Positions 207-58,053 of a stretch of 64,000 nucleotides of DNA are shown piece by piece. Both the position numbers and the translations under genes were made by a program. The notes beneath the pieces were generated by a model that saw only the letters and a program-made list of their open reading frames with translations, had not been told where the DNA came from and did not search any database. This DNA comes from an uncultured Acidobacteriota bacterium (GTDB taxonomy: Bacteria; Acidobacteriota; Polarisedimenticolia; J045): positions 791,013-855,012 of the forward strand of contig CAWDCL010000004.1 in NCBI GenBank assembly GCA_963800865.1, written 5' to 3'. Position 1 is the stretch's first letter. Every line of letters begins with the position of its first letter.

Positions 207-836
207 CTACGCGAACGGCGCCGGGTCTCCGGCCCCCTCGCGGATCACCTCGACGCCCCCCTCCGCCAGCTCCACGACCGTCGACGGTTCGACGCTGCCC
301 CAGCCACCGTCGAGGAACAGGTCGACCGCGTGTCCGACCCGCTGCTCGATCTCGTCCGGGTCGGCGAGCGGCAGATCGTCGCCCGGGAGCCGGACCGTCG
401 TCGCCAGCAGCGCCCCGCCGGCAGCGGCCGCGACCGCGCGGCAGACCGCGTTGTCCGGCACCCGCAGCCCGATCGTCTTGCGCTTGGCCAGCAGGATCCG
501 CGGCACCTCGCGCGTCGCCGGCAGGACGAAGGTGTAGGGGCCCGGCAGGTAGCGCTTCAGGATCCGGTAGGCGTGGGTGTCGACCAGCGCGTACGTGGCC
601 ACGTCCGACAGGTCGGGGACGATCAGCGAGAAGAGCTTCTTGTCCGGGTTCATCGCCTTGAGCTGCGCGATCCGGTCCAGCGCCTGGCGCGAGCCGGGCA
701 GGGCGACGAACGCGTAGCAGGTGTCGGTCGGGATCACGATCACGCCGTGGTCGGAGAGCACGCGCCCGGCGCGCTCGACCAGCCGCACCTGCGGCGTGAC
801 CGGGTGGATCTCGAAGCGCTGCCCGCCGCGGGTCAC
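207..836 (-). CDS. tsaC: L-threonylcarbamoyladenylate synthase (YrdC/TsaC/Sua5 family). The start is a GTG at 836; an alternative in-frame GTG at 887 would overlap the upstream gene by 44 nt.
   Basis: The translation contains IHPVTPQVRLVERAGRVLSDHGVIVIPTDTCYAF, LIVPDLSDVATYA and GPYTFVLPAT, which are YrdC-domain hallmarks. GAGGGA lies just upstream of the GTG at 836. Confidence 0.7.
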   Translation of the reverse strand: MTRGGQRFEIHPVTPQVRLVERAGRVLSDHGVIVIPTDTCYAFVALPGSRQALDRIAQLKAMNPDKKLFSLIVPDLSDVATYALVDTHAYRILKRYLPGPYTFVLPATREVPRILLAKRKTIGLRVPDNAVCRAVAAAAGGALLATTVRLPGDDLPLADPDEIEQRVGHAVDLFLDGGWGSVEPSTVVELAEGGVEVIREGAGDPAPFA

Positions 837-3863: not shown

Positions 3864-4559
3864 ATGCGTTGGACCAAGGCAGCGATACTGGCTCTGGGCA
3901 TGACGATGCTGTTCGGCGCGGTGGCGCTGGCCGGGGATGACTTCACCGGACCCTACTTCGGCGGCACGCTCGCCTACGTGTCGCCCACCGGCAACGTCAA
4001 CGTGGACGGCGTGAACTCGGAACTCGCCAACGGCTGGGGCGCCGCCCTGCTCGGCGGCTACCGCTTCGACAAGCTGTGGCAGCTCGACGGCGAGATCATC
4101 TACTCCTCTCACACCTTCAAGTTCAACGACCTGGTCAACGACGTCTCGGGGGATGGTGACACCTCGGTCATTCAGTACCTGGCCGAAGCGAACTTCCATT
4201 TCCTGTACTACTGCGGCGTGCAGGTCTACGCCGGCCCGGTGATCGGGCTCGCGACGTTCGACGCGGTCGATCTCGGCACCGCGAACTTCGAGATCGACAA
4301 CACGTTCGTCTACGGCGCCAACATCGGCATCGACGTGCCGTTCTCGGGACGCGACGACGAGAAGGGCTGGAACTTCACCGCGCGCGTGAAGTACCTGATC
4401 ATGGAGCCGGATACCCAGAACACCGCGGACTGCGAATTCTGCGGCGGCGTCGGCGACGGTGGCGACTCGGGCGGTTCGAGCGGCTCGACCGACGTGAGCC
4501 ACTACAATCTGAAGGTCGACCCCTGGGTGCTCCAGGCGGGCATCCTCTACAAGTGGTAG
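3864..4559 (+). CDS. Outer-membrane beta-barrel protein (OmpA-like/OmpW-like small porin family, with signal peptide)
   Basis: Signal peptide MRWTKAAILALGMTMLFGAVALAG. The body has alternating amphipathic beta strands, and the C-terminus ends ...ILYKW with the aromatic terminal residue typical of OMPs. Confidence 0.7.
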   Translation: MRWTKAAILALGMTMLFGAVALAGDDFTGPYFGGTLAYVSPTGNVNVDGVNSELANGWGAALLGGYRFDKLWQLDGEIIYSSHTFKFNDLVNDVSGDGDTSVIQYLAEANFHFLYYCGVQVYAGPVIGLATFDAVDLGTANFEIDNTFVYGANIGIDVPFSGRDDEKGWNFTARVKYLIMEPDTQNTADCEFCGGVGDGGDSGGSSGSTDVSHYNLKVDPWVLQAGILYKW

Positions 4560-4615
4560 CCGGCGCTCCCCGGGGCCGCCTCCGGGCGGCCGCGGGGGCG
4601 TCCCGAACCGATCGC

Positions 4616-4649
4616 GGGCGCGGCCTCCGGGCCGCGCCCGTTGCTTTTC
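4616..4649 (+). terminator. Rho-independent terminator
   Basis: Stem GGGCGCGGCC, loop tccg, stem GGCCGCGCCC, followed by GTTGCTTTTCC. Confidence 0.6.
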
Positions 4650-11324: not shown

Positions 11325-12488
11325 ATGGGAGAGGCCCCGGCGCTCGCCCCCTGGGCGCAGCCCGACGCGCGGACGCGGGGCCGGCGCCACGACGAGCCGG
11401 AACACGGATACCGCCCCGTCTACGCCCGCGACCGCGACCGGATCATCCACTGCCGCGCGTTCCGCCGCCTCGAGTACAAGACGCAGGTCTTCGTCAACCA
11501 CGAGGGCGACCACTACCGCACGCGCCTGACGCACTCGATCGAGGTCGCGCAGATCGCCCGCACGGTGGCGCGGGCGCTCGGGCTCAACGCCGACCTGTCC
11601 GAGTCGCTGGCGCTGTCGCACGACCTCGGGCACACCCCGTTCGGGCACCTCGGCGAGGAGGTGCTCGACCCGCTGCTGCGCGCGCTGGGAGGCTTCTCCC
11701 ACAACCGCCAGACGCTGCGGATCGTCGAGGTCCTCGAGCAGCGCTACCCCGACTTCCCGGGGCTGAACCTGACCTGGGAGGTGCGCGAGGGGATCGCCAA
11801 GCACAGCGGCACGCCGGACCTGGCGCGCTTCCCCGAGGCGGCGGAGTACGACCCCGCCGTGCCGCCGCCGGTCGAGGCGCAGATGATCGACCTCGTCGAC
11901 GAGATCGCCTACAACCACCACGACATCGACGACGGGCTGGAGTCGCGGCTGCTCGAGGTCGACGACCTGGTGCGCACGGTGCCGCTGTTCGGCCGGGTCT
12001 ACCAGGACGCGGCGCGGCGCTGGCCGGCGCAGGGCGATCGGATGTGGGTCAAGATCGCGCTGCGCGGGGTGATCGACACCCTGGTGAGCGATCTCGTCGA
12101 CACCACGCGGGCCGAGTTGACGGCGCGCGGGCTGCATTCGGTGGACGACGTCCGCGCGCAGGCCCGCTGGCTGGCCGCGCTCTCGCCCCCCGTCGCCGCC
12201 GAGAACCGCGTGCTCAAGCACTACCTGCACGAACACCTCTACCGCCACCCGCGCATCCTCGAGACGAAGCGTCACCTGGCCGACGTGCTGCGGGACCTGT
12301 TCGCGGCCTACGCCGCGCGCCCGGCCGAGATGCCGGAGCGCTTCGCCGCGCTGGCCGAGACGGAGGGCGCGGCGCGCGCCGCGAGCGACTACCTGGCCGG
12401 CATGACCGACCGCTTCGCGCTGCAGGAGCACCGGCGGCTGTGCGGCGGGCCGGGGCCGGACGCGTTTCCGTTCGCGACGCGGCCGTAG
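11325..12488 (+). CDS. dGTPase-like deoxynucleoside triphosphate triphosphohydrolase (HD domain)
   Basis: YRTRLTHSIEVAQIAR...SHDLGHTPFGH...DIDDGL. Only a 1-nt gap separates it from the ferredoxin gene. Confidence 0.85.
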   Translation: MGEAPALAPWAQPDARTRGRRHDEPEHGYRPVYARDRDRIIHCRAFRRLEYKTQVFVNHEGDHYRTRLTHSIEVAQIARTVARALGLNADLSESLALSHDLGHTPFGHLGEEVLDPLLRALGGFSHNRQTLRIVEVLEQRYPDFPGLNLTWEVREGIAKHSGTPDLARFPEAAEYDPAVPPPVEAQMIDLVDEIAYNHHDIDDGLESRLLEVDDLVRTVPLFGRVYQDAARRWPAQGDRMWVKIALRGVIDTLVSDLVDTTRAELTARGLHSVDDVRAQARWLAALSPPVAAENRVLKHYLHEHLYRHPRILETKRHLADVLRDLFAAYAARPAEMPERFAALAETEGAARAASDYLAGMTDRFALQEHRRLCGGPGPDAFPFATRP

Positions 12489-12615
12489 GGGCCGGTCCGG
12501 GGGCGTGCCGGCCCGGCGACGCTTTGACAGTCCGGGCCGGTGGACCCGAGAATCCCGCCCTTCGCTTCACCGTCTTCGCCCGAGAGAAGTCACCGGAATG
12601 CCCCAAGGAGGCTCC

Positions 12616-13233
12616 ATGAAAGCGGCAACGATGTTCTCGATCTCCTCCCTGATCCTGGCGATGTCCGCCTCGATCCCGGCCGCGACGGCGGACAGCGCCG
12701 AGGCGACCTGCCAGCTCCGCAAGGACGGCGAGACCAAGGCGAGCGCGTCCGGCCCCTGCACCTTCTCGCAGCGGCAGGGCAACATCGACATCGACCTGAA
12801 GAACGGCGACACGGTCAGCCTGACCCTGGGGGACAAGGCGAACCACTACAAGGACCAGAAGGGGAGGACGGTCGTGCGGACCGTGCTCCCGGACGGCGCC
12901 CACGAGTACAAGTGGGAGGGGAAGAAGCTCCTCGTGACCTTCGAGACGACGGGGTCGGCCACCCACGGCCAGCAGGGTCAAAGCAAGCCGCAGGCCGATT
13001 CCGACACGCCCGCCAACCTGCGGGACCTCGTCGGGGGTCGCCGCGTCGGCGGCGAGGTGGACGACGAGCTGGTGCGGCGCGGCTACGAGCACATCAAGGA
13101 CGACGTCAACGAGCCCGACGTCTGGAGCTACTGGCGCCGGAAAGGCAGCTCGGAGTGCGTCGTCGTCCACTTCGACGCCAAGCGCGTCGTCCAGTCGATC
13201 GCTCCCGGGCTCGCGAGCAGCTGCAAGCGCTGA
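12616..13233 (+). CDS. Secreted hypothetical protein (205 aa)
   Basis: RBS AAGGAGG precedes the ATG at 12616. Signal peptide MKAATMFSISSLILAMSASIPAATA. Confidence 0.55.
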   Translation: MKAATMFSISSLILAMSASIPAATADSAEATCQLRKDGETKASASGPCTFSQRQGNIDIDLKNGDTVSLTLGDKANHYKDQKGRTVVRTVLPDGAHEYKWEGKKLLVTFETTGSATHGQQGQSKPQADSDTPANLRDLVGGRRVGGEVDDELVRRGYEHIKDDVNEPDVWSYWRRKGSSECVVVHFDAKRVVQSIAPGLASSCKR

Positions 13234-16318: not shown

Positions 16319-16335
16319 GGAACGCCGCCCGGCCC

Positions 16336-17385
16336 CTACCGGATCCGCACCACGACCTTCCCCAGCGCCTTGCGCTCCTCCAGCTTGCGGTGCGCGGCGG
16401 CCAGCTCCTCGAACGGGAAGACCGAGTCGACGACCGTCTTCAGCCGCCCCGCCCCGATCAGCTGCACGATCGTCACCAGGTCGGCGCGGCGGCCCATCGT
16501 CGAGCCGAGGATCTCGAGGTTCCTGAAGAAGACCGGGCGGAAGTCGGCCTTCATCTCGAAGCCCGACGAGGCCCCGACGAAGACGTATCGGCCCCCCTTG
16601 CCCAGCGTCTGCAGCGAGCCCGGGAAGCTCTCCTGCCCGACGTGGTCGGCGACGACCTGGATCCCGCGCGGGCCGGCCCAGTCGCGGACCCTCTTCACCC
16701 ATCCCGGGTCCTTCGAGTCGAACGCCTCCTCGGCCCCCAGCGTGAGCGCGAGGGCGCGCTTCTCCGGCGTCCCCGCGGTGGCGACGACGCGGGCCCCGTG
16801 GAGGCGAGCGACCTGGATCGCCGCCACCGAGACCCCCGACGCCGCGGCGTGGACCAGCACCCGCATCCCGGGCTCGACGCGCGCCTTGTGGACCAGCATG
16901 TGCCAGGCGGTGAGGAAGGTCAGCGCGAACGACGCGCCGCTCTCGAGGTCGAGCGCGTCGGCCAGCGGCCAGACGCTCGTCGCCGGCAGCACGAGGAACT
17001 CGGTCGCGGTCCCGTTGCGCGCCTCGCCGAGGATCGCGTAGCTGGGACAGAGGTTGTCCCGGCCGGCAAGGCAGCTTTCGCAGCGCATGCAGGAGACCCC
17101 CGGCATGATGAAGACCCGCGTCCCCGGCAGCGGCCCGGCCACCCCGTCTCCCAGCGCGTCGATCCGCCCCGAGCCGTCGCAGCCGGGGACGATCGGCAGC
17201 GGGAAGCGCACCCCGGGTATTCCGCGCCGGACCCAGATATCGAGGTGATTGAGCGCCATCGCCTCGAGCCGCACCCGGACCTCGCCCGGGCCGGGCTCGG
17301 GGAGGGGAAGCGCCTCCATCCGCAGCACCTCGGGGCCGCCGTGCTCGTGGATCCGGAACGCGCGCATCGTCGTCGCGGCCGCCAT
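16336..17385 (-). CDS. Zinc-binding alcohol dehydrogenase / quinone oxidoreductase (MDR superfamily)
   Basis: GGAGGAG RBS precedes the ATG at 17385. GHE-like catalytic region plus a structural zinc Cys cluster CMRCESCLAGRDNLC, and a Rossmann segment AAASGVSVAAIQVARLHGARVVA. Confidence 0.8.
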   Translation of the reverse strand: MAAATTMRAFRIHEHGGPEVLRMEALPLPEPGPGEVRVRLEAMALNHLDIWVRRGIPGVRFPLPIVPGCDGSGRIDALGDGVAGPLPGTRVFIMPGVSCMRCESCLAGRDNLCPSYAILGEARNGTATEFLVLPATSVWPLADALDLESGASFALTFLTAWHMLVHKARVEPGMRVLVHAAASGVSVAAIQVARLHGARVVATAGTPEKRALALTLGAEEAFDSKDPGWVKRVRDWAGPRGIQVVADHVGQESFPGSLQTLGKGGRYVFVGASSGFEMKADFRPVFFRNLEILGSTMGRRADLVTIVQLIGAGRLKTVVDSVFPFEELAAAHRKLEERKALGKVVVRIR

Positions 17386-17421
17386 CGGGCTCTCCTCCGA
17401 AAGCCGGATTATAGTCACCGG

Positions 17422-21325: not shown

Positions 21326-21676
21326 GTGGCCGCCCGCCGCCGCTACCGCGTCTACGTGATCGAACTGCTGAACGACGACGGCTGGCAGGGCGACCCGTCG
21401 ATCCCCTGGGTCTACGTCGGCCACACCGCCAAGCGGCTGGAGGAGCGCTGGCGCGAGCACGCCGAAGGGGTTCGCGGCAAGTCGACGAAGTGGACCGACG
21501 GCCGCTGCGGCCCGCTGCTCGCGGAACTGTACGGGACGATCGAGGCCGTGGCGACGCGCGCGGAGGCGCTGGAGCTGGAGCGCGCGCTGTCGATCCGGCT
21601 GCACGAGACCGGTTACGGCGTCCACGGCGATGGGCTGCCGCGCGGGCTGCGGCGCCGGAGCGGCCGCAGCCCGTAG
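21326..21676 (+). CDS. GIY-YIG nuclease-domain protein (small, YhbQ-like)
   Basis: YRVYVIEL...VYVGHTAKRLEERWREH fits GIY-(10-11)-YIG...R...H/E. Confidence 0.6.
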   Translation: MAARRRYRVYVIELLNDDGWQGDPSIPWVYVGHTAKRLEERWREHAEGVRGKSTKWTDGRCGPLLAELYGTIEAVATRAEALELERALSIRLHETGYGVHGDGLPRGLRRRSGRSP

Positions 21677-21800
21677 GGGCCGGGCTCCGTCCCGGCCCGC
21701 ACGTCGACTCCGCGTTTCGGGCCGGCACAGAGGCCGGCCCCTACGCTGCTGCGACGGCAACCGTTGCCCGTGTCCCGACCCAGGCCACAGCGGGCGGCCC
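21677..21800. repeat. GC-rich palindromic REP-like intergenic element cluster (two inverted copies)
   Basis: GTAGGGGCCGGGCTCCGTCCCGGCCCG and, in inverse orientation, GGGCCGGCACAGAGGCCGGCCCCTAC plus GGCAACCGTTGCC. The same modules recur at 46354-46520 and 56110-56176. Confidence 0.7.
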
Positions 21801-24251
21801 CTACCGCCCGTAGTGCCCGAGCAGCCCCTCGCCCTTGACCCCGACCGCCGACACCAGCCAGCAGGTCAGCGAGCCGGGCGCCGACGCCGAGCGGTCCGTG
21901 AAGGCGGTGTCGGACGCGCTGACATCCTCGCCGGTGACGTCGACGAAGCTGCCGGAGGCTTGCGGGTCGCTGCCGCGGTACACCGTGTAGGTCAGCGCCG
22001 AGCCGACCGGCCACCAGGTCAGCGCCGTCGCACCGCCGGCCTGGCGCGACAGGTCGCGCAGCAGGACCTCCGGGAGCGGGGTCTCCCAGGGGCGCGTCTT
22101 CAGCTCCAGCCGCCAGGACTGCAGCGAGCCCACGTTGCCGGCCGCCGCGTCCTGCACCTCGAGCGTCCAGGTCCCGAGCGACGACCGGCCGCGCAGCACG
22201 TCGAGGCTGTCGACCGGCGCGGTCAGCGTGTCGTAGGTCGTGTCGATGTTGTCGGCCGAGCCGCCCTGGCGGCTGTGCAGCCGCACCCGCGTCCCGTCGG
22301 GCGCGACGAGCGTCACGCGCAGGTCGGCGATGTAGGGGTGCGTGATCTGCACCCGCACGTCGACCTCCTCCAGCTCCTCGTCGAGCGTCACGCCGATGGC
22401 CGAGGTCGTCTTCCCGGGGTTGGGGATCGCCTTCGGGGTGTCGGTGGCATCGCGCTGCGTCAGCAGCGGCGCGCCGAGCGGGACGAAGAAGGCGTCGGTC
22501 GTGCCGGAGGCGCCCTGCGCCGTCGTCCAGTCGACCGCGAAGGCCAGCTTGTGCCCGGCCGGCGCGTTCGGCGCGACGGAGAGGCCGAAGTGCGGCGCGA
22601 CCGTCTCGGCCGACGCGCCGGTCCCGAGATCGGGCCACAGGGCGCCAGTCTGCGGCTGGCCGTAAACGGTCAGCGGCCGCAGCGTCCCGGAGATCCCGGT
22701 CGCCGCGCCGCCGGCGTTGCGCACCGTCACCGCGAGCTGTCCCGCCTCGCCGGGCGCGAACCAGCCGTCCGCGTTCGTCTCCTGCGCGGCGCGGCTGGCG
22801 GTCACGGCCAGCCCGGTCGGGTTCGGCGAGAGGGTCACGTCCAGCCGCGTCGCGTCGCCGCGCGAGCTGGCCACCGTGAACGGGACGACGCGGGTCTGGT
22901 ACCCGTCGGCGCTGACCTCCAGCTGGTACGAGCCGGCCTTCAGCACGCGCTGGTAGTCGCCCACCGGCAGGTCCGTGAAGAACGGGTGCTGGCGGCCGTC
23001 GACGCGCAGCGTCGCGGCGAGCGGCGCGCCGGTCGTGACGTCGGTGACGCGCCCCCGCACGCCGGTCAGCGCGCGCTCCATAGAGGAGAGCATCGACTCG
23101 CGGTTGTCGTTCCAGTAGCCGTCGAGGGTGCTGGCGGCCGGCGTCTTGGGGCCGCTCAGCTCGACCGTCAGGTCGAGGTCGCCCTGCCAGACCATGTTCC
23201 AGTCCTGCATCCCGCCGTAGATGACGTACCAGTCCGCGCCGTTGGTGATCCCCTGCGAGAACGAGCCGCTGCCGTGCATCGGCGCGTTGTCCTCGGCGTA
23301 GTCGAGCGCGATGTCGACCAGGACGTCGTCGTCGGGGGCCACCGAGTAGTTGGGAAGCCCGTTGGTGTTGCCGTCGTAGGGGTAGTTCGTCACGACCGCC
23401 CCGCCGTGGAAGTTCCCCGACAGGCTGGTCTGGTGTGCGAACTGCCAGTTCATCATCAGCCCGGTTTCCTTCGCGCGCCCGGCGGTCGTGTTGACCGGAT
23501 CGTTCCAGATGTCCGGGAAGTCGCGGTTGAGGTCGACGCCGGCCGCGTTGTAGCGCTGGGCCAGCACGTTCCCGTCGGGGTTCATCGAGACCATGATCCA
23601 GATCTCGAGGTTGTCGACGAGCCGCTGGACGCGCGTGTCGGTCGCGTAGCGGTCGGTCAGCCAGTCGATCAGCCGCAGCAGGTTCTCCGCCCCGACCTTC
23701 TCGTCGCCGTGCATGTTGCCGACGTACTTGAAAGCGGGCTCGTCCTCTTCGACGTCGGGGTTGTCGGTGATCTTCAGCCACCACAGCTCGCGCCCCTGCA
23801 CGCTCTTGCCGGCCGAGCTGAGGCGCGTGATCGCCGGGTGATCGTTCGCGACCTGCTGCAGCTGCGTGGTCCAGGAGCTGTAGTCGTGGTAGGTGGCCTC
23901 GGGGGCCAGCGGCCCGTCCTGCTGCTGCTGCCGGGCGAGGAACTCCGCCAGGCCGGGGTCGGGGAGCTCGGTCCAGGAGAGGCCCAGTGCCTCGAGCTTC
24001 TCCATCTCCTCGGCGGTGACGTAGGCGATCACCTCGCGCTGCTCGTCACGCTCGACGTCGAAGCCGGCGTTGAGCAGCTCGGCGAACTCGACCGGGCCGG
24101 CGCCCAGGATCCGCACGATCCGGTACTCGGCGCGGCCGAGGGGGCCGATCGGGCGCGGCGCGGGGCCGGCGGCGAGGAGGACGGGGAGAGAGGCCGCCAC
24201 GAGGAGGGCGGCGAGCGGGCGGATCCGGCCGAGGCCGGGCAAACGCGGCAT
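21801..24251 (-). CDS. Secreted M14 zinc carboxypeptidase with a C-terminal proprotein-convertase P-domain
   Basis: Signal peptide. KYVGNMHGDEKVG is the M14 zinc-binding HxxE signature. PYIADLRVTLVAPDGTRVRLHS...GNVGSLQSWRLEL is a P/Homo-B domain. Confidence 0.85.
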   Translation of the reverse strand: MPRLPGLGRIRPLAALLVAASLPVLLAAGPAPRPIGPLGRAEYRIVRILGAGPVEFAELLNAGFDVERDEQREVIAYVTAEEMEKLEALGLSWTELPDPGLAEFLARQQQQDGPLAPEATYHDYSSWTTQLQQVANDHPAITRLSSAGKSVQGRELWWLKITDNPDVEEDEPAFKYVGNMHGDEKVGAENLLRLIDWLTDRYATDTRVQRLVDNLEIWIMVSMNPDGNVLAQRYNAAGVDLNRDFPDIWNDPVNTTAGRAKETGLMMNWQFAHQTSLSGNFHGGAVVTNYPYDGNTNGLPNYSVAPDDDVLVDIALDYAEDNAPMHGSGSFSQGITNGADWYVIYGGMQDWNMVWQGDLDLTVELSGPKTPAASTLDGYWNDNRESMLSSMERALTGVRGRVTDVTTGAPLAATLRVDGRQHPFFTDLPVGDYQRVLKAGSYQLEVSADGYQTRVVPFTVASSRGDATRLDVTLSPNPTGLAVTASRAAQETNADGWFAPGEAGQLAVTVRNAGGAATGISGTLRPLTVYGQPQTGALWPDLGTGASAETVAPHFGLSVAPNAPAGHKLAFAVDWTTAQGASGTTDAFFVPLGAPLLTQRDATDTPKAIPNPGKTTSAIGVTLDEELEEVDVRVQITHPYIADLRVTLVAPDGTRVRLHSRQGGSADNIDTTYDTLTAPVDSLDVLRGRSSLGTWTLEVQDAAAGNVGSLQSWRLELKTRPWETPLPEVLLRDLSRQAGGATALTWWPVGSALTYTVYRGSDPQASGSFVDVTGEDVSASDTAFTDRSASAPGSLTCWLVSAVGVKGEGLLGHYGR

Positions 24252-44213: not shown

Positions 44214-44461
44214 CGCCCGTCCTCGGCGCTCCCTTCCATGGCGTCGTAGAGCGCGTCGCGGTCGTTGAGATCGACGCCGGGACGGAGTCGCCCTTCGGTT
44301 GTGACCCAGCGCAAGCTGTAGACGCGGTCGTCGGGCCGCCGCCGGACGAGCGCCTCGCGCAACGCCTCCTCGATGACCGCGGTGATCGTCGTGCCGGCGT
44401 CGGCGGCCCGCTTGCGGACCAGCTTCATCAGCTCGTCGTCGAGGTTCAGGGTGGTTCTCAT
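44210..44461 (-). CDS. vapB: VapB-type antitoxin (RHH/CopG-like)
   Basis: MRTTLNLDDELMKLVRKRAADAGTTITAVIEEALREALVRRRP is an RHH motif. It is directly upstream of and overlapping vapC. Confidence 0.65.
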   Translation of the reverse strand: MRTTLNLDDELMKLVRKRAADAGTTITAVIEEALREALVRRRPDDRVYSLRWVTTEGRLRPGVDLNDRDALYDAMEGSAEDGR

Positions 44462-44578
44462 GCATATAAGCATACAGTCAAAGCAGCGATATGCCACACC
44501 TGGCTTCTAACCCCCGGAACCCGCCCCCGCCGCCGCCCGCGTTGACAGCACCTGCCCCCGGGGGCACAGTCCCGCCCC

Positions 44579-45496
44579 GTGTTCGCCGACCTCGAATCGC
44601 CCGGCCGGCCGGCCGCCCCGCCGGTCCGGCTGAAGGACCGCCTGGCCGATCCGCGCCCGCTGGTCGCGGTCGAGCTGCGCCCGCCGCGGCGCGACCTCGA
44701 GGGGGTCGGCGCGATGGAGGCCTGGATCGACGCCTACCACGCGGTCCAGAGCCTGTCGGCGACCGACACCGTCGTCTTCCTGACCGACAACGCGATCGGC
44801 AGCAGCGAGGAGGAGAACCTCGGCCACCTCGTGCGCAACCTCGGCCCCGCGGCGCGGCGCGAGCGGATCGTCCCGTTCCTGACGCTCAAGCACCCGCTGG
44901 ACTACTGCCGCCGCTACGCCGGCCGCGCGCGCCGCGAGCGCTTCCCCGGGCTGGTCGTGCTGGGAGGCGACACGCACGACGCGATCCCGCGCTGCCTGCC
45001 GCACAGCTGGCAGCTGCGCGAGGCGCTGCGCGCGGAGCAGCCGGGGCTGCTGCTGGGCGGCTGGGTCAACCCGTACCGCGATCCCGCCGAGCAGGTCTCG
45101 CTGCTGCTCGATCACGGCGCGGGGCTGGACTTCCTGCTGACGCAGATCGTCTCGCACCACGACCTGGCGCCGGTCGCCGCCTTCGCCGAGGAGGCCGCGC
45201 GGCGCGGGCTGGCGCTGCCGACCTTCGCGGGCGTCTTCTTCTACCGCAGCGCGCGCCGGCAGACGCTCGACGCGCTGGCGCAGTTCATCCCGGTCCCGGC
45301 CGCCGGCTTGTCGGCCGACTTCCTGGAGCGGAAGATGTCGGCCGAGGAGGTCGCGGCGGCGACGCTGTCGGCGCTGGCCGGCCTCGGCTTCACGCGCTTC
45401 TACATCTCGAACCTCGAGACGGGGCGGGCGCCCGCACGGCGGACGTCGATCGCGCGCCGCGCCGGGCTCTCCGCACCCGAAAGGACACCCCGATGA
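44579..45496 (+). CDS. Methylenetetrahydrofolate reductase family protein (MetF-like)
   Basis: VAVELRPP...VVFLTDNAIGS...FYISNLE is colinear with MetF VSFEFFPP...FHFYTLNRAE. It lies near metH. The start is a GTG. Confidence 0.5.
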   Translation: MFADLESPGRPAAPPVRLKDRLADPRPLVAVELRPPRRDLEGVGAMEAWIDAYHAVQSLSATDTVVFLTDNAIGSSEEENLGHLVRNLGPAARRERIVPFLTLKHPLDYCRRYAGRARRERFPGLVVLGGDTHDAIPRCLPHSWQLREALRAEQPGLLLGGWVNPYRDPAEQVSLLLDHGAGLDFLLTQIVSHHDLAPVAAFAEEAARRGLALPTFAGVFFYRSARRQTLDALAQFIPVPAAGLSADFLERKMSAEEVAAATLSALAGLGFTRFYISNLETGRAPARRTSIARRAGLSAPERTPR

Positions 45497-46353
45497 GTGC
45501 CACCACCTACGACGTGACCACCGCCGGATTCGAGAAGGACGTGATCGAGAGGTCCGACGAGGCCGTCGTCGTGATCGACTTCTGGGCCCCCTGGTGCGGG
45601 CCGTGCAAGACGCTCGGCCCGATCCTGGAAGACGAGATCGGCAAGCTCGACGGCCGGGCCGTGCTGGCCAAGGTGAATGTCGACGAGAACCCCGAGCTGG
45701 CGCAGGCCTTCCAGGCCCAGTCGATCCCGATGGTCGTCGCGATCCACAAGCGGCGGCCGGTCTCGTCGTTCCTCGGCGCGCAGCCGCGCGACGTCGTCGA
45801 GCAGTGGCTGAAGCAGGTCGTGCCGAGCGCGGCCGAGACCAGCCTGGAGTCGGCGAAGAAGCTGCTGGCCGAGCACGAGTACGCGCAGGCCGAGACGGTG
45901 CTGCGCAAGGTCCTCGCCGCCAACCCGAACGACCAGACCGCGCTGCTCGAGCTGGCGCGCGTGCTGGCGCGGCGCGGGGAGCGGGCCGAGGCGCTGGTGC
46001 TGCTCGACCGGATCCCCGCCGGGACCCCGGAGTACGACGCCGCCGAGCGCGAGCGGTTGATGTTTGCGATGTTCGACGCCGGGGAGCAGGCGGGGGACCT
46101 CGCGGCGGCCAAGGCGAAGGTCGCCGCGAACCCCGCGGACAGCGCGGCGCGCTTCGCGCTGGCCGGGGCGCACTGGCTGGAGGGGGAGATCGAGCCGGCG
46201 CTCGCGGAGTTGCTGACGATCGTGCGCAAGGACCGCGCCTTCTGGGACGATGGGGCGCGCAAGGCGCTGCTGGCGTTGTTCGACTACCTCGGCGAGGGGA
46301 TCCCGGCGGTCGACACCGCGCGCTCGGAGCTGGCGAACATCCTCTTTTCGTAG
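45493..46353 (+). CDS. Thioredoxin-domain protein with a C-terminal TPR-like domain (YbbN/CnoX-type chaperedoxin)
   Basis: VVIDFWAPWCGPCKTLGPIL is the WCGPC active site, followed by helical TPR-like repeats. The start overlaps the previous stop (ATGA). Confidence 0.75.
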   Translation: MSATTYDVTTAGFEKDVIERSDEAVVVIDFWAPWCGPCKTLGPILEDEIGKLDGRAVLAKVNVDENPELAQAFQAQSIPMVVAIHKRRPVSSFLGAQPRDVVEQWLKQVVPSAAETSLESAKKLLAEHEYAQAETVLRKVLAANPNDQTALLELARVLARRGERAEALVLLDRIPAGTPEYDAAERERLMFAMFDAGEQAGDLAAAKAKVAANPADSAARFALAGAHWLEGEIEPALAELLTIVRKDRAFWDDGARKALLALFDYLGEGIPAVDTARSELANILFS

Positions 46354-46520
46354 GCGGGGCCGGCCCGAACGGGGCGAACGGTTCCTTAGGGCCGGCCTCC
46401 GTGCCGGCCCGAAGGGCAGCGCAACGGTTCCTGTAGGGGCCGGCCTCCGTGCCGGCCCGAAAGGGCAGCGCAACGGTTCCTGTAGGGGCCGGCCTCCGTG
46501 CCGGCCCGAAAGGGCAGCGT
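46354..46520. repeat. REP-like tandem array: three copies of a ~50-bp unit, GGGCCGGCCTCCGTGCCGGCCCGAAAGGGCAGCGCAACGGTTCCTGTAG, plus a degenerate leader copy
   Basis: The perfect 8-bp stem palindrome GGGCCGGC/GCCGGCCC with a ctccgt loop is repeated. This is the same family as the elements at 21677-21800. Confidence 0.85.
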
Positions 46521-46521
46521 G

Positions 46522-46899
46522 ATGGCCGACGACGCGCTCCAGGTGAAGCTCGGCAAGCTCAACGTCGGCCGCGCGCGCCGGCACCTGTTCCTCTGCGCGC
46601 AGCAGTCCAAGCCGAAGTGCTCGACCTACGAGGAGAGCGCGGCCGTCTGGGCCTACGTCAAGCAGCGCCTGAAAGAGCTGGGGCTCGAGGGGCCGGAGGC
46701 CGGCGATCCGTGCGTCCTGCGCAACAGGGTCGACTGCCTGCGGATCTGCCAGGACGGGCCGATCGCGGTCGTTTACCCGGAGGGGGTCTGGTACCGCGGG
46801 GTGACCGTCGAGGTCGCGGAGCGGATCATCCAGGAGCACCTGATCGGGGGTCATCCGGTCGAGGAGTTCGTGATTGCTCGGGCGCCGTTGAACGGCTGA
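46522..46899 (+). CDS. Thioredoxin-like [2Fe-2S] ferredoxin family protein
   Basis: [13 protein letters not shown]...[19 protein letters not shown]. The Cys pattern is that of Trx-like Fd. Confidence 0.55.
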
Positions 46900-46969
46900 C
46901 GCGTGAAAGTGCCCCCCCGGGGCGCGGGCTCCATTCGGGCGCCCCGGGGGGGCACTTTCACGCGTCAGC
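46895..46969. terminator. Bidirectional intrinsic terminator: a 31-bp perfect inverted repeat with a 13-nt loop. Both convergent stop codons are inside the stem.
   Basis: GCTGACGCGTGAAAGTGCCCCCCCGGGGCGC ... GCGCCCCGGGGGGGCACTTTCACGCGTCAGC. The TGA of the + gene is at 46897-46899, and the TGA of the - gene is the complement of 46965-46967. Confidence 0.7.
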
Positions 46970-47693
46970 CTCCGGGCGCGAGCTGGACGGTTAGGACCGG
47001 CCGATCTTCGCACGGTGCTTCTGGCTGGTAGGTGAGTTGAATCGCCGTTCCCTGGACGGTGATCGTGGTGAGGCTGACCGTCTCGGCTTCGTCGCGATGC
47101 ATGCAGGGGGAGTAGGGGCCGCGGTCGGGGTGGTGGCTGCGGTGGAAGGCATCGAGCGCCGCGCGCGTGATCCCGCCGTGCTGAGCGGCGACGCGGGCGA
47201 GCGTGCCGCGACGGGAGCGGGCGACGCCGTCGGCGTCGCGGCCCGATGACGTCAAGGGAAGGGCGGCGGCGTCGAGTGGGAACGCCTCGATCGATTCGCC
47301 GTCCCAGCGCAGGGCGCGCGGCGCCTCGCCCACGCCGAAGAGGGCCAGCGTGAACGGCTGATAGCGCGCGAGGTCGGCGTGGGAGAGGGCCTCCCCGGCG
47401 GCCTCGACGGTCGTCGAACCTCCCAGCCCCAGCACCAGCAGCCCGCGGCTGATCGGCGGCCGGTCCAGCGGGAAGGGGTGGTCGCGGAACAGGTTCAGCA
47501 GGCAGGCCGCGACGCCCCGCTCGTTGACGAAGGCCCATGTCCCGCCGGCCTCCCCGTCGCGCGGCGCGACGAAGTGGAGGCCCGCGGCCGAGTCGATCCG
47601 CGGCGGCTCCGCCGGGCGGCGCGAGCGCCGCTCGTCGCGGTTGAAGAAGACCGCGTAGCCGTCCGGCTCGACGATCCAGCTGAGGGTGCACAT
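46965..47693 (-). CDS. NRDE-family protein (TANGO2-like, DUF833)
   Basis: MCTLSWIVEPDGYAVFFNRDE is the family-defining N-terminus. Confidence 0.7.
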   Translation of the reverse strand: MCTLSWIVEPDGYAVFFNRDERRSRRPAEPPRIDSAAGLHFVAPRDGEAGGTWAFVNERGVAACLLNLFRDHPFPLDRPPISRGLLVLGLGGSTTVEAAGEALSHADLARYQPFTLALFGVGEAPRALRWDGESIEAFPLDAAALPLTSSGRDADGVARSRRGTLARVAAQHGGITRAALDAFHRSHHPDRGPYSPCMHRDEAETVSLTTITVQGTAIQLTYQPEAPCEDRPVLTVQLAPGG

Positions 47694-56109: not shown

Positions 56110-56176
56110 GACGACTTACCGGCTAACGGTTGCTGTCCCCGATTCGACCGACTTACCGGCTTACGGTTGCTGTCCC
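56110..56176. repeat. Two direct copies of GACTTACCGGCT(A/T)ACGGTTGCTGTCCCCG, related to the REP-like family
   Basis: The copies are at 56113-56139 and 56148-56176. They share the GC(A/T)AACGGTTGC(C/T)GTC core with the elements at 21755-21785 and 46420-46440. Confidence 0.6.
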
Positions 56177-58053
56177 CGGTTGCGGCGTAGCCACTGCGTC
56201 CGCGGGCGGACGTCGATCGTCACGACCGCCTCGTCGATCAGCACCGGCTCCGAGCGGCCGTAGGCTTCCCAGAGGGCGGCGAACTTCTCGCCGCGGTTGG
56301 GGCGCTCGTCGGGCTGGGTCGGGTCGCAGCCGTAGTCGAACGGATCGCAGGTCGAGCGGCTCTCGGCGGCCAGGAACCGGGAGTACTCGCGCGGCACGAC
56401 CTGGTGCCAGAGCCGGACGCGCACGAGCATCGGCCCGCTGGCCCGGGTCGGGATCCAGACCGGGTAGCGCGTGTCGTCCCAGTGCGCGAGCCCGCCGCTC
56501 GCGGGGTCGTCCGCGAAGCGGGCGCCGACCGGCTCGGTCTCGGCGTCCGGCCGGAAGCCTCGCGGCGGGATCCGGTTGTCCTTGACGACGCAGTCGTTGA
56601 GCACGAAGTGGAACATCTCGTGCCCGGTGGCGGCGTCCACGGTGTCGCAGTGCCCGTCGCCGTTGTAGTCGAAGATGCCGTGCTTCGCCTCGTAGACCTT
56701 GAGGTGCGGGTCCTCCGGCAGCGTCGCGGTGGCGGCGTCGTACCGGCCCGAGGACCAGGTCGTCTCCGCCGCGGTGAGCGAGCCGTCGCGGTCGGCGTCG
56801 ATCCCCGCCGCGACCTCCAGCCAGGCGCGCCGCCCCTCGGTGTAGCCGGTCGGGAACTTGTGCCCGCCGAGGTTGGTGACCCGGACGTCGACCGGGAGAT
56901 AGCGGCCGGAGAAGACCAGCTGCGTCGCCGAGACGCGCAGCTCCGCGGTCCGGTTCTGCAGCAGGTCGAGCGTGGCCGCGCGGGCCTGGGCGTAGGCCGC
57001 GGTCCGCCGCAGCGGAGCGCCGTACTCGGCGGCCAGGAGATCGAGCATGAAGACGTTCGCGCCCTGGAACTGGTGGGTGCGGTAGGGGCCCTCGAGCTCC
57101 GTGTTCGTACCGCGCGGCCCGGGCGGCGAGGAGCACGCGGTGGCGGCGTCGGCCCGTCCGTCGGCGTCGAGGTCGGGCCGGGGCATGTGGCAGGCCTGGC
57201 AGGTCGCGGCGACGCGCGAGCCGGGGCGCGCGTACTCCGACTGCTGCCACTCGCGGTAGGTCCGCTCGATCGGGAACCGGTAGCCGAGATCGGCTCCGCT
57301 CTTCGCGTCGCGGCGGTTCTTCACGGGGTTCGTGATGTCGTGGCACTGGCCGCAGAGCGCGGCCGAGCGCTGGAACGGCGTCGCCGCGAACTGGTGGCCG
57401 GTCGGGACGGAGTCGGCGAAGGGGCCGAACATCAGCTCGGGCGTCCGCGAGAGGTAGATCTGCGCGTTCCCGGCGTAGGGCGCGCGCGGGTCGGCGAACT
57501 CCCCCTCCGGCGGCCGCGAGGCGTCATACATCCGGTGGCAGCTGGCGCAGACGATCCCCTCGAAGTCGGTGTTGTTGCGCTGCGGCGTCCCCTGCAGGCA
57601 GCTCCCGTCGAACGGCTGGCCCCAGGCGTTCTCGCAGCTCGAGCGCCCCTCGTACCAGGCCTTGGGCGCGTGGCAGCGCAGGCAGAAGTCACCGACGCCG
57701 GCGTTGCCGAGCTTCGCGTCGTCCTGGTTGGCGACGTCGAGCGCGGCCCAGAAGAGCGGGTCGCGCGCGGCGTTCGCCATCAGCGAGCCGGCCCAGGTGT
57801 CGTACGGCTCGTAGGGCGCGGTCTCCGGCGCGCGATACCCGCCGTGGCAGACGTTGCAGCGCCCGGGCGGGTCGAGCAGCCCCGGGTCGTCGTGGTCGGC
57901 GAACGCGGGGAACCCCGGGTCGCCACTGCCGTCGCGAGGCTGCGTCCCGGGCAGGCGGACGCCCGCGGGGGCGGCGGCGAGCACCAGGAGGGCCGTCCCG
58001 GCGAGCAGCAGCAGCGCGGCGGGCAACCGGAGGCGGCGAGGTGACAGGGGCAT
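56161..58053 (-). CDS. Secreted multiheme c-type cytochrome with five CxxCH motifs
   Basis: Signal peptide MPLSPRRLRLPAALLLLAGTALLVLAAAPA. Heme-binding motifs CNVCH, CLRCH, CASCH, CGQCH and CQACH. Confidence 0.8.
   Translation of the reverse strand: MPLSPRRLRLPAALLLLAGTALLVLAAAPAGVRLPGTQPRDGSGDPGFPAFADHDDPGLLDPPGRCNVCHGGYRAPETAPYEPYDTWAGSLMANAARDPLFWAALDVANQDDAKLGNAGVGDFCLRCHAPKAWYEGRSSCENAWGQPFDGSCLQGTPQRNNTDFEGIVCASCHRMYDASRPPEGEFADPRAPYAGNAQIYLSRTPELMFGPFADSVPTGHQFAATPFQRSAALCGQCHDITNPVKNRRDAKSGADLGYRFPIERTYREWQQSEYARPGSRVAATCQACHMPRPDLDADGRADAATACSSPPGPRGTNTELEGPYRTHQFQGANVFMLDLLAAEYGAPLRRTAAYAQARAATLDLLQNRTAELRVSATQLVFSGRYLPVDVRVTNLGGHKFPTGYTEGRRAWLEVAAGIDADRDGSLTAAETTWSSGRYDAATATLPEDPHLKVYEAKHGIFDYNGDGHCDTVDAATGHEMFHFVLNDCVVKDNRIPPRGFRPDAETEPVGARFADDPASGGLAHWDDTRYPVWIPTRASGPMLVRVRLWHQVVPREYSRFLAAESRSTCDPFDYGCDPTQPDERPNRGEKFAALWEAYGRSEPVLIDEAVVTIDVRPRTQWLRRNRGQQP

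Follow-up and report, generated by a model that had tools for sequence, protein, structure and literature searches.

REP elements of the GTAG super-family are the described repeats closest to those reported here. They are palindromic units of 20-40 bp, usually present in more than 100 copies per host genome. According to the survey by Di Nocera, De Gregorio and Rocco (2013, PMC3733652), GTAG REPs supply TAG stop codons, form HH, TT and HT dimers, prefer the spacers between convergent or unidirectional genes and flank RAYT genes. Clusters of these repeats can carry flanking DNA, and head-to-tail arrays are said there to be rare among GTAG families (PMC3733652). In Stenotrophomonas maltophilia, the SMAG/REPSm repeats combine GTAG with an 8-bp perfect palindrome and a 3-nt loop, and binding and cleavage of single-stranded REPs by TnpA-REP are GTAG-dependent in Escherichia coli, in S. 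maltophilia (with its 8-bp perfect stem) and in Marinomonas (PMC8266576). At the RNA level, a REP cluster that resides between same-strand genes in E. coli (REP325) was shown to terminate transcription leakily and, in addition, to stabilise the upstream transcript (bioRxiv 10.64898/2026.03.23.713779).

The DNA examined in the current study is a 64-kb stretch of 73% G+C, hereafter called the window. The original prediction proposed that it carries a REP/BIME-like hairpin family, a view that our analyses support and sharpen to a GTAG-type REP with an associated RAYT transposase. Like the super-family as portrayed in PMC3733652, the repeats have an unpaired GTAG, a G+C stem in the range of 6-9 bp and sub-families with complementary stem changes. 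They also share with it HH dimers, clusters with flanking DNA, RAYT genes flanked by repeats, a distance of only a few nucleotides to the 3' ends of neighbouring genes in convergent or unidirectional order, and TAG stops that come from GTAG. However, the loop is 6 nt long (CTCCGT or CTCTGT), whereas most of the families described in that survey have loops of 2-4 nt. In addition, the host is an uncultured, high-G+C and probably acidobacterial organism, whereas all that the 2013 survey reports for that phylum are RAYT-like genes with long terminal inverted repeats on their flanks (PMC3733652).

Resemblances to REPIN-RAYT systems (Bertels and Rainey 2011, PMC3116915; Bertels et al. 2017, PMC5581495) include an inverted REP pair that is separated by a short spacer and folds into one long hairpin, as well as a RAYT gene in conserved context (four contigs), as expected of vertically kept single-copy Group 2/3 RAYTs (PMC5581495). 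Unlike in those systems, only one doublet is present in the window, and the remaining copies form a head-to-tail array and a singleton. REPIN-like doublets occur in many related loci too, and single units and direct arrays are also frequent there. The multi-unit cluster between two same-strand genes at 46350-46519 parallels the E. coli REP325 cluster in its layout. An E. coli-type BIME is not what we observe: E. coli BIMEs alternate in orientation and have bulged stems, whereas the units of this array are head-to-tail with perfect stems, and the linker GCAACGGTT is found only at two window loci and their orthologues.

For these analyses, gene boundaries were taken from crude GC3-based calls, domains were assigned by Pfam, and a covariance model of the REP family was built from ten distinct units. 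Metagenome sequences were scanned with the pattern GGGCCGGSCTCYGTSCCGGCCC, in which GTAG is omitted and two stem positions are left free, and at least 120 stretches matched. A scan of a genome collection for GTAGGGGCCGG-N6-12-CCGGCCC likewise matched at least 120 stretches. Fetched loci are designated below by L numbers where they must be told apart. No part of the window matches an Rfam family at the gathering threshold.

The 26-nt unit consists of GTAG followed by GGGCCGG(S), CTC(C/T)GT and (S)CCGGCCC, which together give an 8-bp perfect stem and a 6-nt loop. The GC-rich module with an 8-bp perfect stem that had been predicted is indeed present, as GGCCGGSCTCCGTSCCGGCC with up to three mismatches occurs seven times in the window (0.97 expected), a count reached by 0 of 100 shuffles. 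Five of these sites have at most one mismatch: 21678(+), 21720(-), 46390, 46438 and 46487. The shorter GTAGGGGCCGG, with up to one mismatch, occurs 15 times versus 2.6 expected. Six copies, at 46433, 46482, 21719(-), 21673, 46389 and 12485, reach E values of 1e-4 or lower with the covariance model, and all other sites score at noise level. These six are spread over three intergenic loci within the 64 kb (12485, 21673-21744 and 46385-46507), and decayed copies adjoin the main units at 21768-21804 and 46350-46383. Of the four loci originally claimed, 21677-21800 and 46354-46520 proved to hold family members and 4574-4639 and 56110-56176 did not. The copy at 12485-12514, the decayed copy at 21768-21804(-), the GTAG head and the overlap between heads and stop codons had all gone unlisted.

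Table 1. Repeat units and associated features in the window.
Feature	Position	Strand	Basis or score
REP variant, 7-bp stem, 12-nt loop, GTAGGGGCCGG tccgggggcgtg CCGGCCC	12485..12514	+	26.2 bits, E 8e-5
Possible head-only remnant GTAGGGGCCGG, without 3' arm; uncertain	16329..16339	-	10 bits by covariance model
REP unit, stem variant b, GTAG GGGCCGGG CTCCGT CCCGGCCC	21673..21698	+	covariance model 47.1 bits, E 2e-10
REP unit, stem variant a, loop CTCTGT, inverted relative to 21673-21698	21719..21744	-	covariance model 47.5 bits
Linker with GCAACGGTTGC at 21757-21767	21745..21767	-	alignment of locus 1 minus strand with locus 2 units
Decayed REP, stem variant c, GTAGGGGCCGCC CGCTGT GGCCTGGG	21768..21804	-	head only, 14.8 bits, E 0.085
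Degenerate first array unit GTAGGCGGGGCCGGCCCGAACGGGGCGAACGGTTCCT, without one arm	46350..46383	+	
REP unit, damaged head (TTAG-GGCCGG...)	46385..46410	+	46389-46410, 31.4 bits, model positions 5-26
Perfect REP unit, variant a	46433..46458	+	covariance model 48 bits
Perfect REP unit, variant a	46482..46507	+	covariance model 48 bits
Head-to-tail (HT) cluster, 49-bp unit (REP + CGAAAGGGCAGC + GCAACGGTTCCT) x 3.4	46359..46519	+	TRF score 273, 93% matches

At locus 1 (21673-21804), the repeats take up all 124 bp that separate a GIY-YIG-domain gene at 21326..21676 from the convergent, minus-strand M14 carboxypeptidase gene at 21801..24251. A plus-strand REP is followed by a spacer of 18-20 nt, an inverted REP, the GCAACGGTTGC linker and a decayed minus-strand REP, whose head gives a GTAGGGGCCGG-type match at 21794-21804(-) and whose stem variant (c) is present in intact form in 12 related loci. 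The two opposite-orientation copies reported for this locus were recovered as a 72-bp head-outside (HH), REPIN-like doublet at 21673-21744, in which 28-nt arms that are 89% complementary stand 18 nt apart. RNA folding, which had been suggested as a check, predicts a single long hairpin for this doublet, at -59.2 and -64.8 kcal/mol (z -6.4 and -7.9). The distance from GCAACGGTTGC to the GTAG of the preceding decayed REP is 37 nt, which equals the spacing within the 49-bp unit 46433-46481. The minus strand of locus 1 can be aligned from end to end with two successive 49-bp units from locus 2, and in both loci GCAACGGTT and GTAG are 37 nt apart.

Locus 2 (46350-46519) is flanked by same-strand genes, with a thioredoxin-TPR gene (45493..46353) upstream and a 125-aa gene that starts at 46522 downstream. 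The tandem array reported at 46354-46520 corresponds to the HT cluster in Table 1, and two of its 49-mers are 100% identical. The last unit ends 14 nt upstream of the ATG of the 125-aa gene. A CRISPR reading of this array was rejected because it has no unique spacers. Directly after the 12485-12514 copy, and upstream of gene 12631..13233, lies a promoter-like TTGACA-18-GAGAAT (10 of 12) at 12524-12553.

Several hairpins and repeats that had been grouped with these elements fall outside the family. With the covariance model, the 'simpler relatives' at 4574-4639 reach no more than 9-11 bits (E about 1-3), and they were rejected as family members on these noise-level scores. One of them, at 4614-4641, is terminator-like because TTGCTTTTCC (a T-tract) follows its 12-bp hairpin. 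Gene 3900..4559 ends with a GTAG stop codon, beyond which lies a longer bulged hairpin of about 17 bp (4562-4602). The core of this hairpin was seen again just once among 246 fetched loci. At 56110-56176, the direct copies exist, but they are not copies of a second module of the family, and the GTAG hairpin is absent. This feature is a local 37-bp duplication of a gene end, seen as a 33-nt direct repeat (94% identical, spacing 37) at 56112-56181, and its second copy holds the last codons and TAA stop of a multihaem cytochrome gene (56161..58053, minus strand). It shares only AACGGTTGCNGTC with locus 1 (three matches in the window versus 0.22 expected, two of which belong to the one local duplication), and AACGGTTGCNGTC is absent from all 246 other fetched loci. 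A link between 56112-56181 and locus 1 through this sequence is thus unproven. The proposed 'companion' GCAACGGTT does stand beside REPs at window loci 1 and 2 and in their orthologues. As a general module, however, GCAACGGTT/AACGGTTGCNGTC was rejected, being absent from 246 other loci that include dozens of REP clusters.

The stem of the repeat varies in a manner that preserves pairing. Across the ten distinct units, 98.8% of cells are paired and two pairs are changed on both sides, whereas control alignments slid by 1-3 columns are only 27-61% paired. Among the metagenome matches listed, the two free S positions could form a base pair in 133 of 134 unique contexts (104 C..G, 29 G..C and one mismatch). 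The third stem variant (c), GGGCCGCC...GGCGGCCC (as a whole unit, GTAGGGGCCGCCCTCYGTGGCGGCCC), represents a compensatory swap of G-C to C-G. This variant was absent from all search patterns and was found at 12 high-G+C loci, usually as an inverted partner. These compensatory changes point to a folded single strand, and not to a duplex site.

The head is similarly well defined. Four of the six model matches have a perfect GTAG that abuts the stem, one has GTAG before a 7-bp stem and one has TTAG. The window contains 316 hairpins whose stems are perfect and 7 bp or longer, and only six of these have a GTAG head, five being members of the REP family. Among the metagenome matches listed, which were retrieved with the pattern that omits GTAG, this tetranucleotide precedes 90 of 140 copies, on the side set by the orientation of the loop.

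Every window copy is intergenic and resides near 3' ends between convergent or same-strand genes according to the crude GC3 calls, which agrees with the convergent or tandem gene setting originally described. Among all called genes, the stop codons are TGA in 37 cases, TAG in 13 and TAA in five. In five of the 13 genes with a TAG stop, this codon belongs to a REP head. These five genes encode an HD-domain protein (11325..12488, with TAG at 12486-12488), an alcohol dehydrogenase (16336..17418, whose stop is supplied by the possible remnant at 16329-16339(-)), the GIY-YIG-domain protein (TAG at 21674-21676), the M14 carboxypeptidase (CTA at 21801-21803, which is TAG on the minus strand) and the thioredoxin-TPR protein (TAG at 46351-46353, within the degenerate first array unit). 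Moreover, G precedes TAG in 11 of the 13 genes and (C)GGGGCCG follows it in five, which hints that many TAG stops in the source genome may derive from repeat heads. In the fetched metagenome matches, 19 of 57 heads on contigs of at least 68% GC close a coding-like ORF. None of the REP loci in the window has a hairpin with a T-tract of the kind found at terminator-like sites.

Two other gene-end structures were encountered in the window. At 46894-46970, between convergent genes, two perfectly paired 32-bp arms around a 13-nt loop form an inverted repeat (-83 kcal/mol, z -8.9), and its arms include both GGCTGA gene ends. It has no second copy among the 246 loci. The orthologous spacer in L195 (flanks 87% identical) is shorter, different and without the inverted repeat, and therefore the structure looks like either an inserted palindromic element or a bidirectional terminator. 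At the other site, positions 1-197 hold a 30-bp tandem repeat, GGCC(A/G)(A/G)CCCCGCCGGGTCGTGCGGATGTCA, present 6.6 times with 95% matches and running off the start of the window. It resides just 3' of a minus-strand gene (207..836) whose stop also has a GTAG context. This repeat is absent from all fetched loci, and its fold is not unusual (z -1.5).

Relatives with about 87-92% DNA identity to the window, or 81-98% identity in a neighbouring protein, differ in the REP content of their orthologous spacers. The L140 contig is 91.6% identical to window positions 44263-46470, and L195 is 87% identical to 45754-46899. Past the thioredoxin-TPR stop codon, two units follow in L140, of which the first has a different loop, and the contig then ends inside the array. 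At the same place L195 has REP a, an inverted REP c, 41 nt and another REP a, whereas the window has 3.4 head-to-tail units. Because CGAAAGGGCAGCGTGATG upstream of the next gene is common to the window, L140 and L195, the window array repeats a REP together with flanking DNA, in line with the clusters of PMC3733652.

Homologues of the M14 protein share 98% (L241), 88% (L242), 81% (L243/L245) and 75% (L246) identity with that of the window, and their spacers also differ. The probable placement of the window in Acidobacteriota comes from the names of M14 homologues at 44-58% identity, and tblastn of window proteins against the fetched loci yielded no additional hint on taxonomy. The three-REP cluster after the M14 gene is the same in L241 as in the window. 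In L243/L245, the whole 66-nt spacer is a single inverted doublet whose outer GTAGs provide both stop codons. No REP is present in the M14 spacer of L242, where the neighbour gene is different. A 59-bp block consisting of the decayed REP, the linker and a second GTAGGGGCCG head, bounded by GTAGGGGCCG direct repeats, is present in the window and L241 but absent from L243/L245. Thus, the suggested use of these repeats in strain typing is plausible, as the orthologous spacers of relatives vary in REP content. The window has three REP loci in 64 kb and 7 kb of L242 adds one further locus, whereas no copy was found on the 13-kb L246 contig. If the window is typical, extrapolation places the REP density on the order of that of E. 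coli REP loci (355 annotated).

Among the matches listed, the exact 22-nt core occurs in metagenome contigs that range from 43% to 78% GC. The more general GTAGGGGCCGG...CCGGCCC type, with varied loops, is found among the listed matches in records named Oscillospiraceae, Acidobacteriota, Thermoleophilia, Gemmatimonadota, Chloroflexota, Streptomyces and others. Because the same core spans contigs of such different composition and the general type occurs in many phyla, the family is not lineage-specific, contrary to what had been proposed. Identical REP cores also reside in A+T-rich surroundings, in contigs of 43-47% GC and in a MAG named Bacillota (L228, L157, L026/L034 and others). The repeat keeps its sequence whatever the composition of the host.

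No RAYT-like ORF lies within the window, and we searched for one in the fetched loci by using phmmer on six-frame ORFs. The seed was an E. coli YafM sequence, and the RAYT matches were re-validated with Pfam, NCBIfam and PDB sequences. One contig (L194, 72% GC) encodes a 164-aa ORF in which an HLH (HUH-type) motif and YIRTNP occur, and the exact window REP is present on both sides. An inverted doublet of the exact window repeat is located upstream, a doublet of variants a and c is located downstream, and the stop codon of the ORF is the TAG of the downstream GTAG head. The best NCBIfam match is 'REP-associated tyrosine transposase' at 66 bits (cut-off 80), versus 24 bits for IS200. The ORF also matches Pfam Y1_Tnp and structures of IS200/IS605-family transposases and, more weakly, E. 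coli TnpA-REP (4er8). Six close homologues are 78-96% identical, three of which JGI calls 'REP element-mobilizing transposase RayT'. The upstream doublet of this contig (L194 4567-4690) is nested in a perfect 24-nt inverted repeat (GGGACCATCCCCCTGGCGGGATTC ... GAATCCCGCCAGGGGGATGGTCCC).

Four additional contigs (L247-L250, 71-72% GC) carry RAYT homologues that are 78-84% identical to that of L194, and two to eight perfect REP copies per contig (46-48 bits) adjoin the gene on both sides. Upstream of RAYT, a Tricorn protease gene or a gene of 1040-1043 aa occupies the same position in all four contigs, truncated in L248 where the contig stops. On the downstream side, a 1102-aa BNR-like gene precedes MlaE/ABC genes in L248 and L250, the contigs that reach that far. 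This synteny fits a RAYT gene that has probably been kept vertically in single copy. Sample 3300037307 yielded both the L250 contig and L243, which is a relative of the window. The RAYT contigs appear to be linked to the window lineage by an identical repeat, similar G+C and a shared sample, and not by one shared genome. For the general REP type, a Vicinamibacterales MAG (L029) has a Y1_Tnp ORF with GTAGGGGCCGGCTTTAGCCGGCCC on both sides, heads outward, which scores 103 bits against NCBIfam 'REP-associated tyrosine transposase' (cut-off 80), and a RAYT gene flanked by this REP type is also present in L048. All transposase genes found beside the repeats are of the Y1/RAYT type.

With phmmer, the RAYT of L194 matches that of an Oceanospirillaceae MAG with an E value of 2e-26, versus 2e-7 for the RAYT of an acidobacterial Vicinamibacterales MAG. 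Taken with the identical REP in contigs of 43-78% GC and in genomes named from different phyla, this could mean that a REP-RAYT system was transferred as a whole from one phylum to another, whereas RAYTs are generally regarded as domesticated genes of vertical descent. A smaller variant of this proposal would have the REP-37 nt-GCAACGGTT-REP block of loci 1 and 2 as a composite module that moves as one piece. We consider this scenario unlikely.

Our explanation, in which we place high confidence, is that the repeats are GTAG-type REPs, that they would be non-autonomous elements spread by RAYT, and that they would exert RNA effects at 3' ends. Family membership, covariation, the head, placement at gene ends, presence or absence in relatives and the RAYT flanks are the observations that form its basis. 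The transposition chemistry and the RNA-level effects are inferred from work in E. coli, Stenotrophomonas and Marinomonas.

Three other explanations deserve consideration. The repeats might be ordinary factor-independent terminators, or gene-end hairpins that arose separately and are alike only through the 73% G+C content. Such an origin would account for the location of every copy just 3' of genes and for the stable folds, and a true terminator-like hairpin with a T-tract does exist nearby, at 4614-4641. However, neither the loop, nor the stem, nor the GTAG head differs from locus to locus or among unrelated contigs, none of the copies is followed by a T-tract, and only six of the 316 perfect hairpins of at least 7 bp are GTAG-headed, five of them from this family. 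Inverted doublets and 49-bp tandem arrays exist, and the repeats flank RAYT genes, all of which makes this reading barely tenable. We assign an equally negligible chance to the proposal that a conventional DDE transposase, acting on terminal inverted repeats, moved the 21673-21744 doublet as a miniature inverted-repeat element, of which the single hairpins would be fragments. Although the doublet has the appearance of a 72-bp element with 28-nt inverted ends, and that of L194 lies inside another inverted repeat (24 nt, perfect), both single units and head-to-tail arrays occur commonly and no target-site duplications were seen. Moreover, both the GTAG head and the loop are strand-specific, which favours recognition of a single strand, and the only transposase genes beside the repeats are of the Y1/RAYT type.

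It is slightly easier to imagine, though still very improbable, that the repeats are host-protein binding sites maintained by selection without any transposase, where a nucleoid protein, gyrase or a regulator would recognise the palindrome or the GCAACGGTTGC linker. REP/BIME clusters of E. coli are reported to bind host proteins (PMC2817692), and GCAACGGTTGC is a near-palindrome with equal 37-nt spacing at two window loci. Nevertheless, the linker motif is absent from 246 other loci that include dozens of REP clusters, and the compensatory stem changes indicate a folded single strand and not a duplex site. Presence and absence between close relatives, together with the RAYT flanks, fit mobile DNA. 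Binding of a host protein could in any case be an added function of a mobile repeat and not an alternative to mobility.

If the repeats are GTAG REPs spread by RAYT, as we favour, the course of events can be drawn from the better-studied systems. RAYT (TnpA-REP, a HUH/Y1 enzyme) would make and spread REPs as non-autonomous elements by recognising the folded single-stranded hairpin plus GTAG and then cutting and rejoining nearby DNA. Clusters would grow and shrink by recombination or slippage between heads, and the head-to-tail array at 46350-46519 could form by slippage without a transposase. Copies would persist just 3' of genes, where GTAG can donate a TAG stop codon. Once transcribed, the hairpins would block exonucleases at 3' ends and leakily attenuate read-through, such that the 46350-46519 array would tune the ratio of thioredoxin-TPR to next-gene expression. 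The role in mRNA stability that had been envisaged is a reasonable inference by analogy with E. coli REPs. In E. coli, REPs no more than 15 nt from a stop codon are reported to reduce protein output through stalled termination, and hairpins that begin 1 nt past the TAG might act likewise.

This work adds a well-defined GTAG REP family with a RAYT, possibly distinct from the 24 published consensus families (PMC3733652), to an uncultured, high-G+C and probably acidobacterial lineage. Several genes of the window end in stop codons donated by repeats, and differences in spacer REP content between close relatives would be useful for typing. Assemblers and annotators should also take the REPs as a warning, since both L140 and L241 are broken off within them. 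Knowledge of REPs in general is unchanged by this family, and its points of note are the probable acidobacterial host and an identical repeat that occurs across contigs of very different composition.
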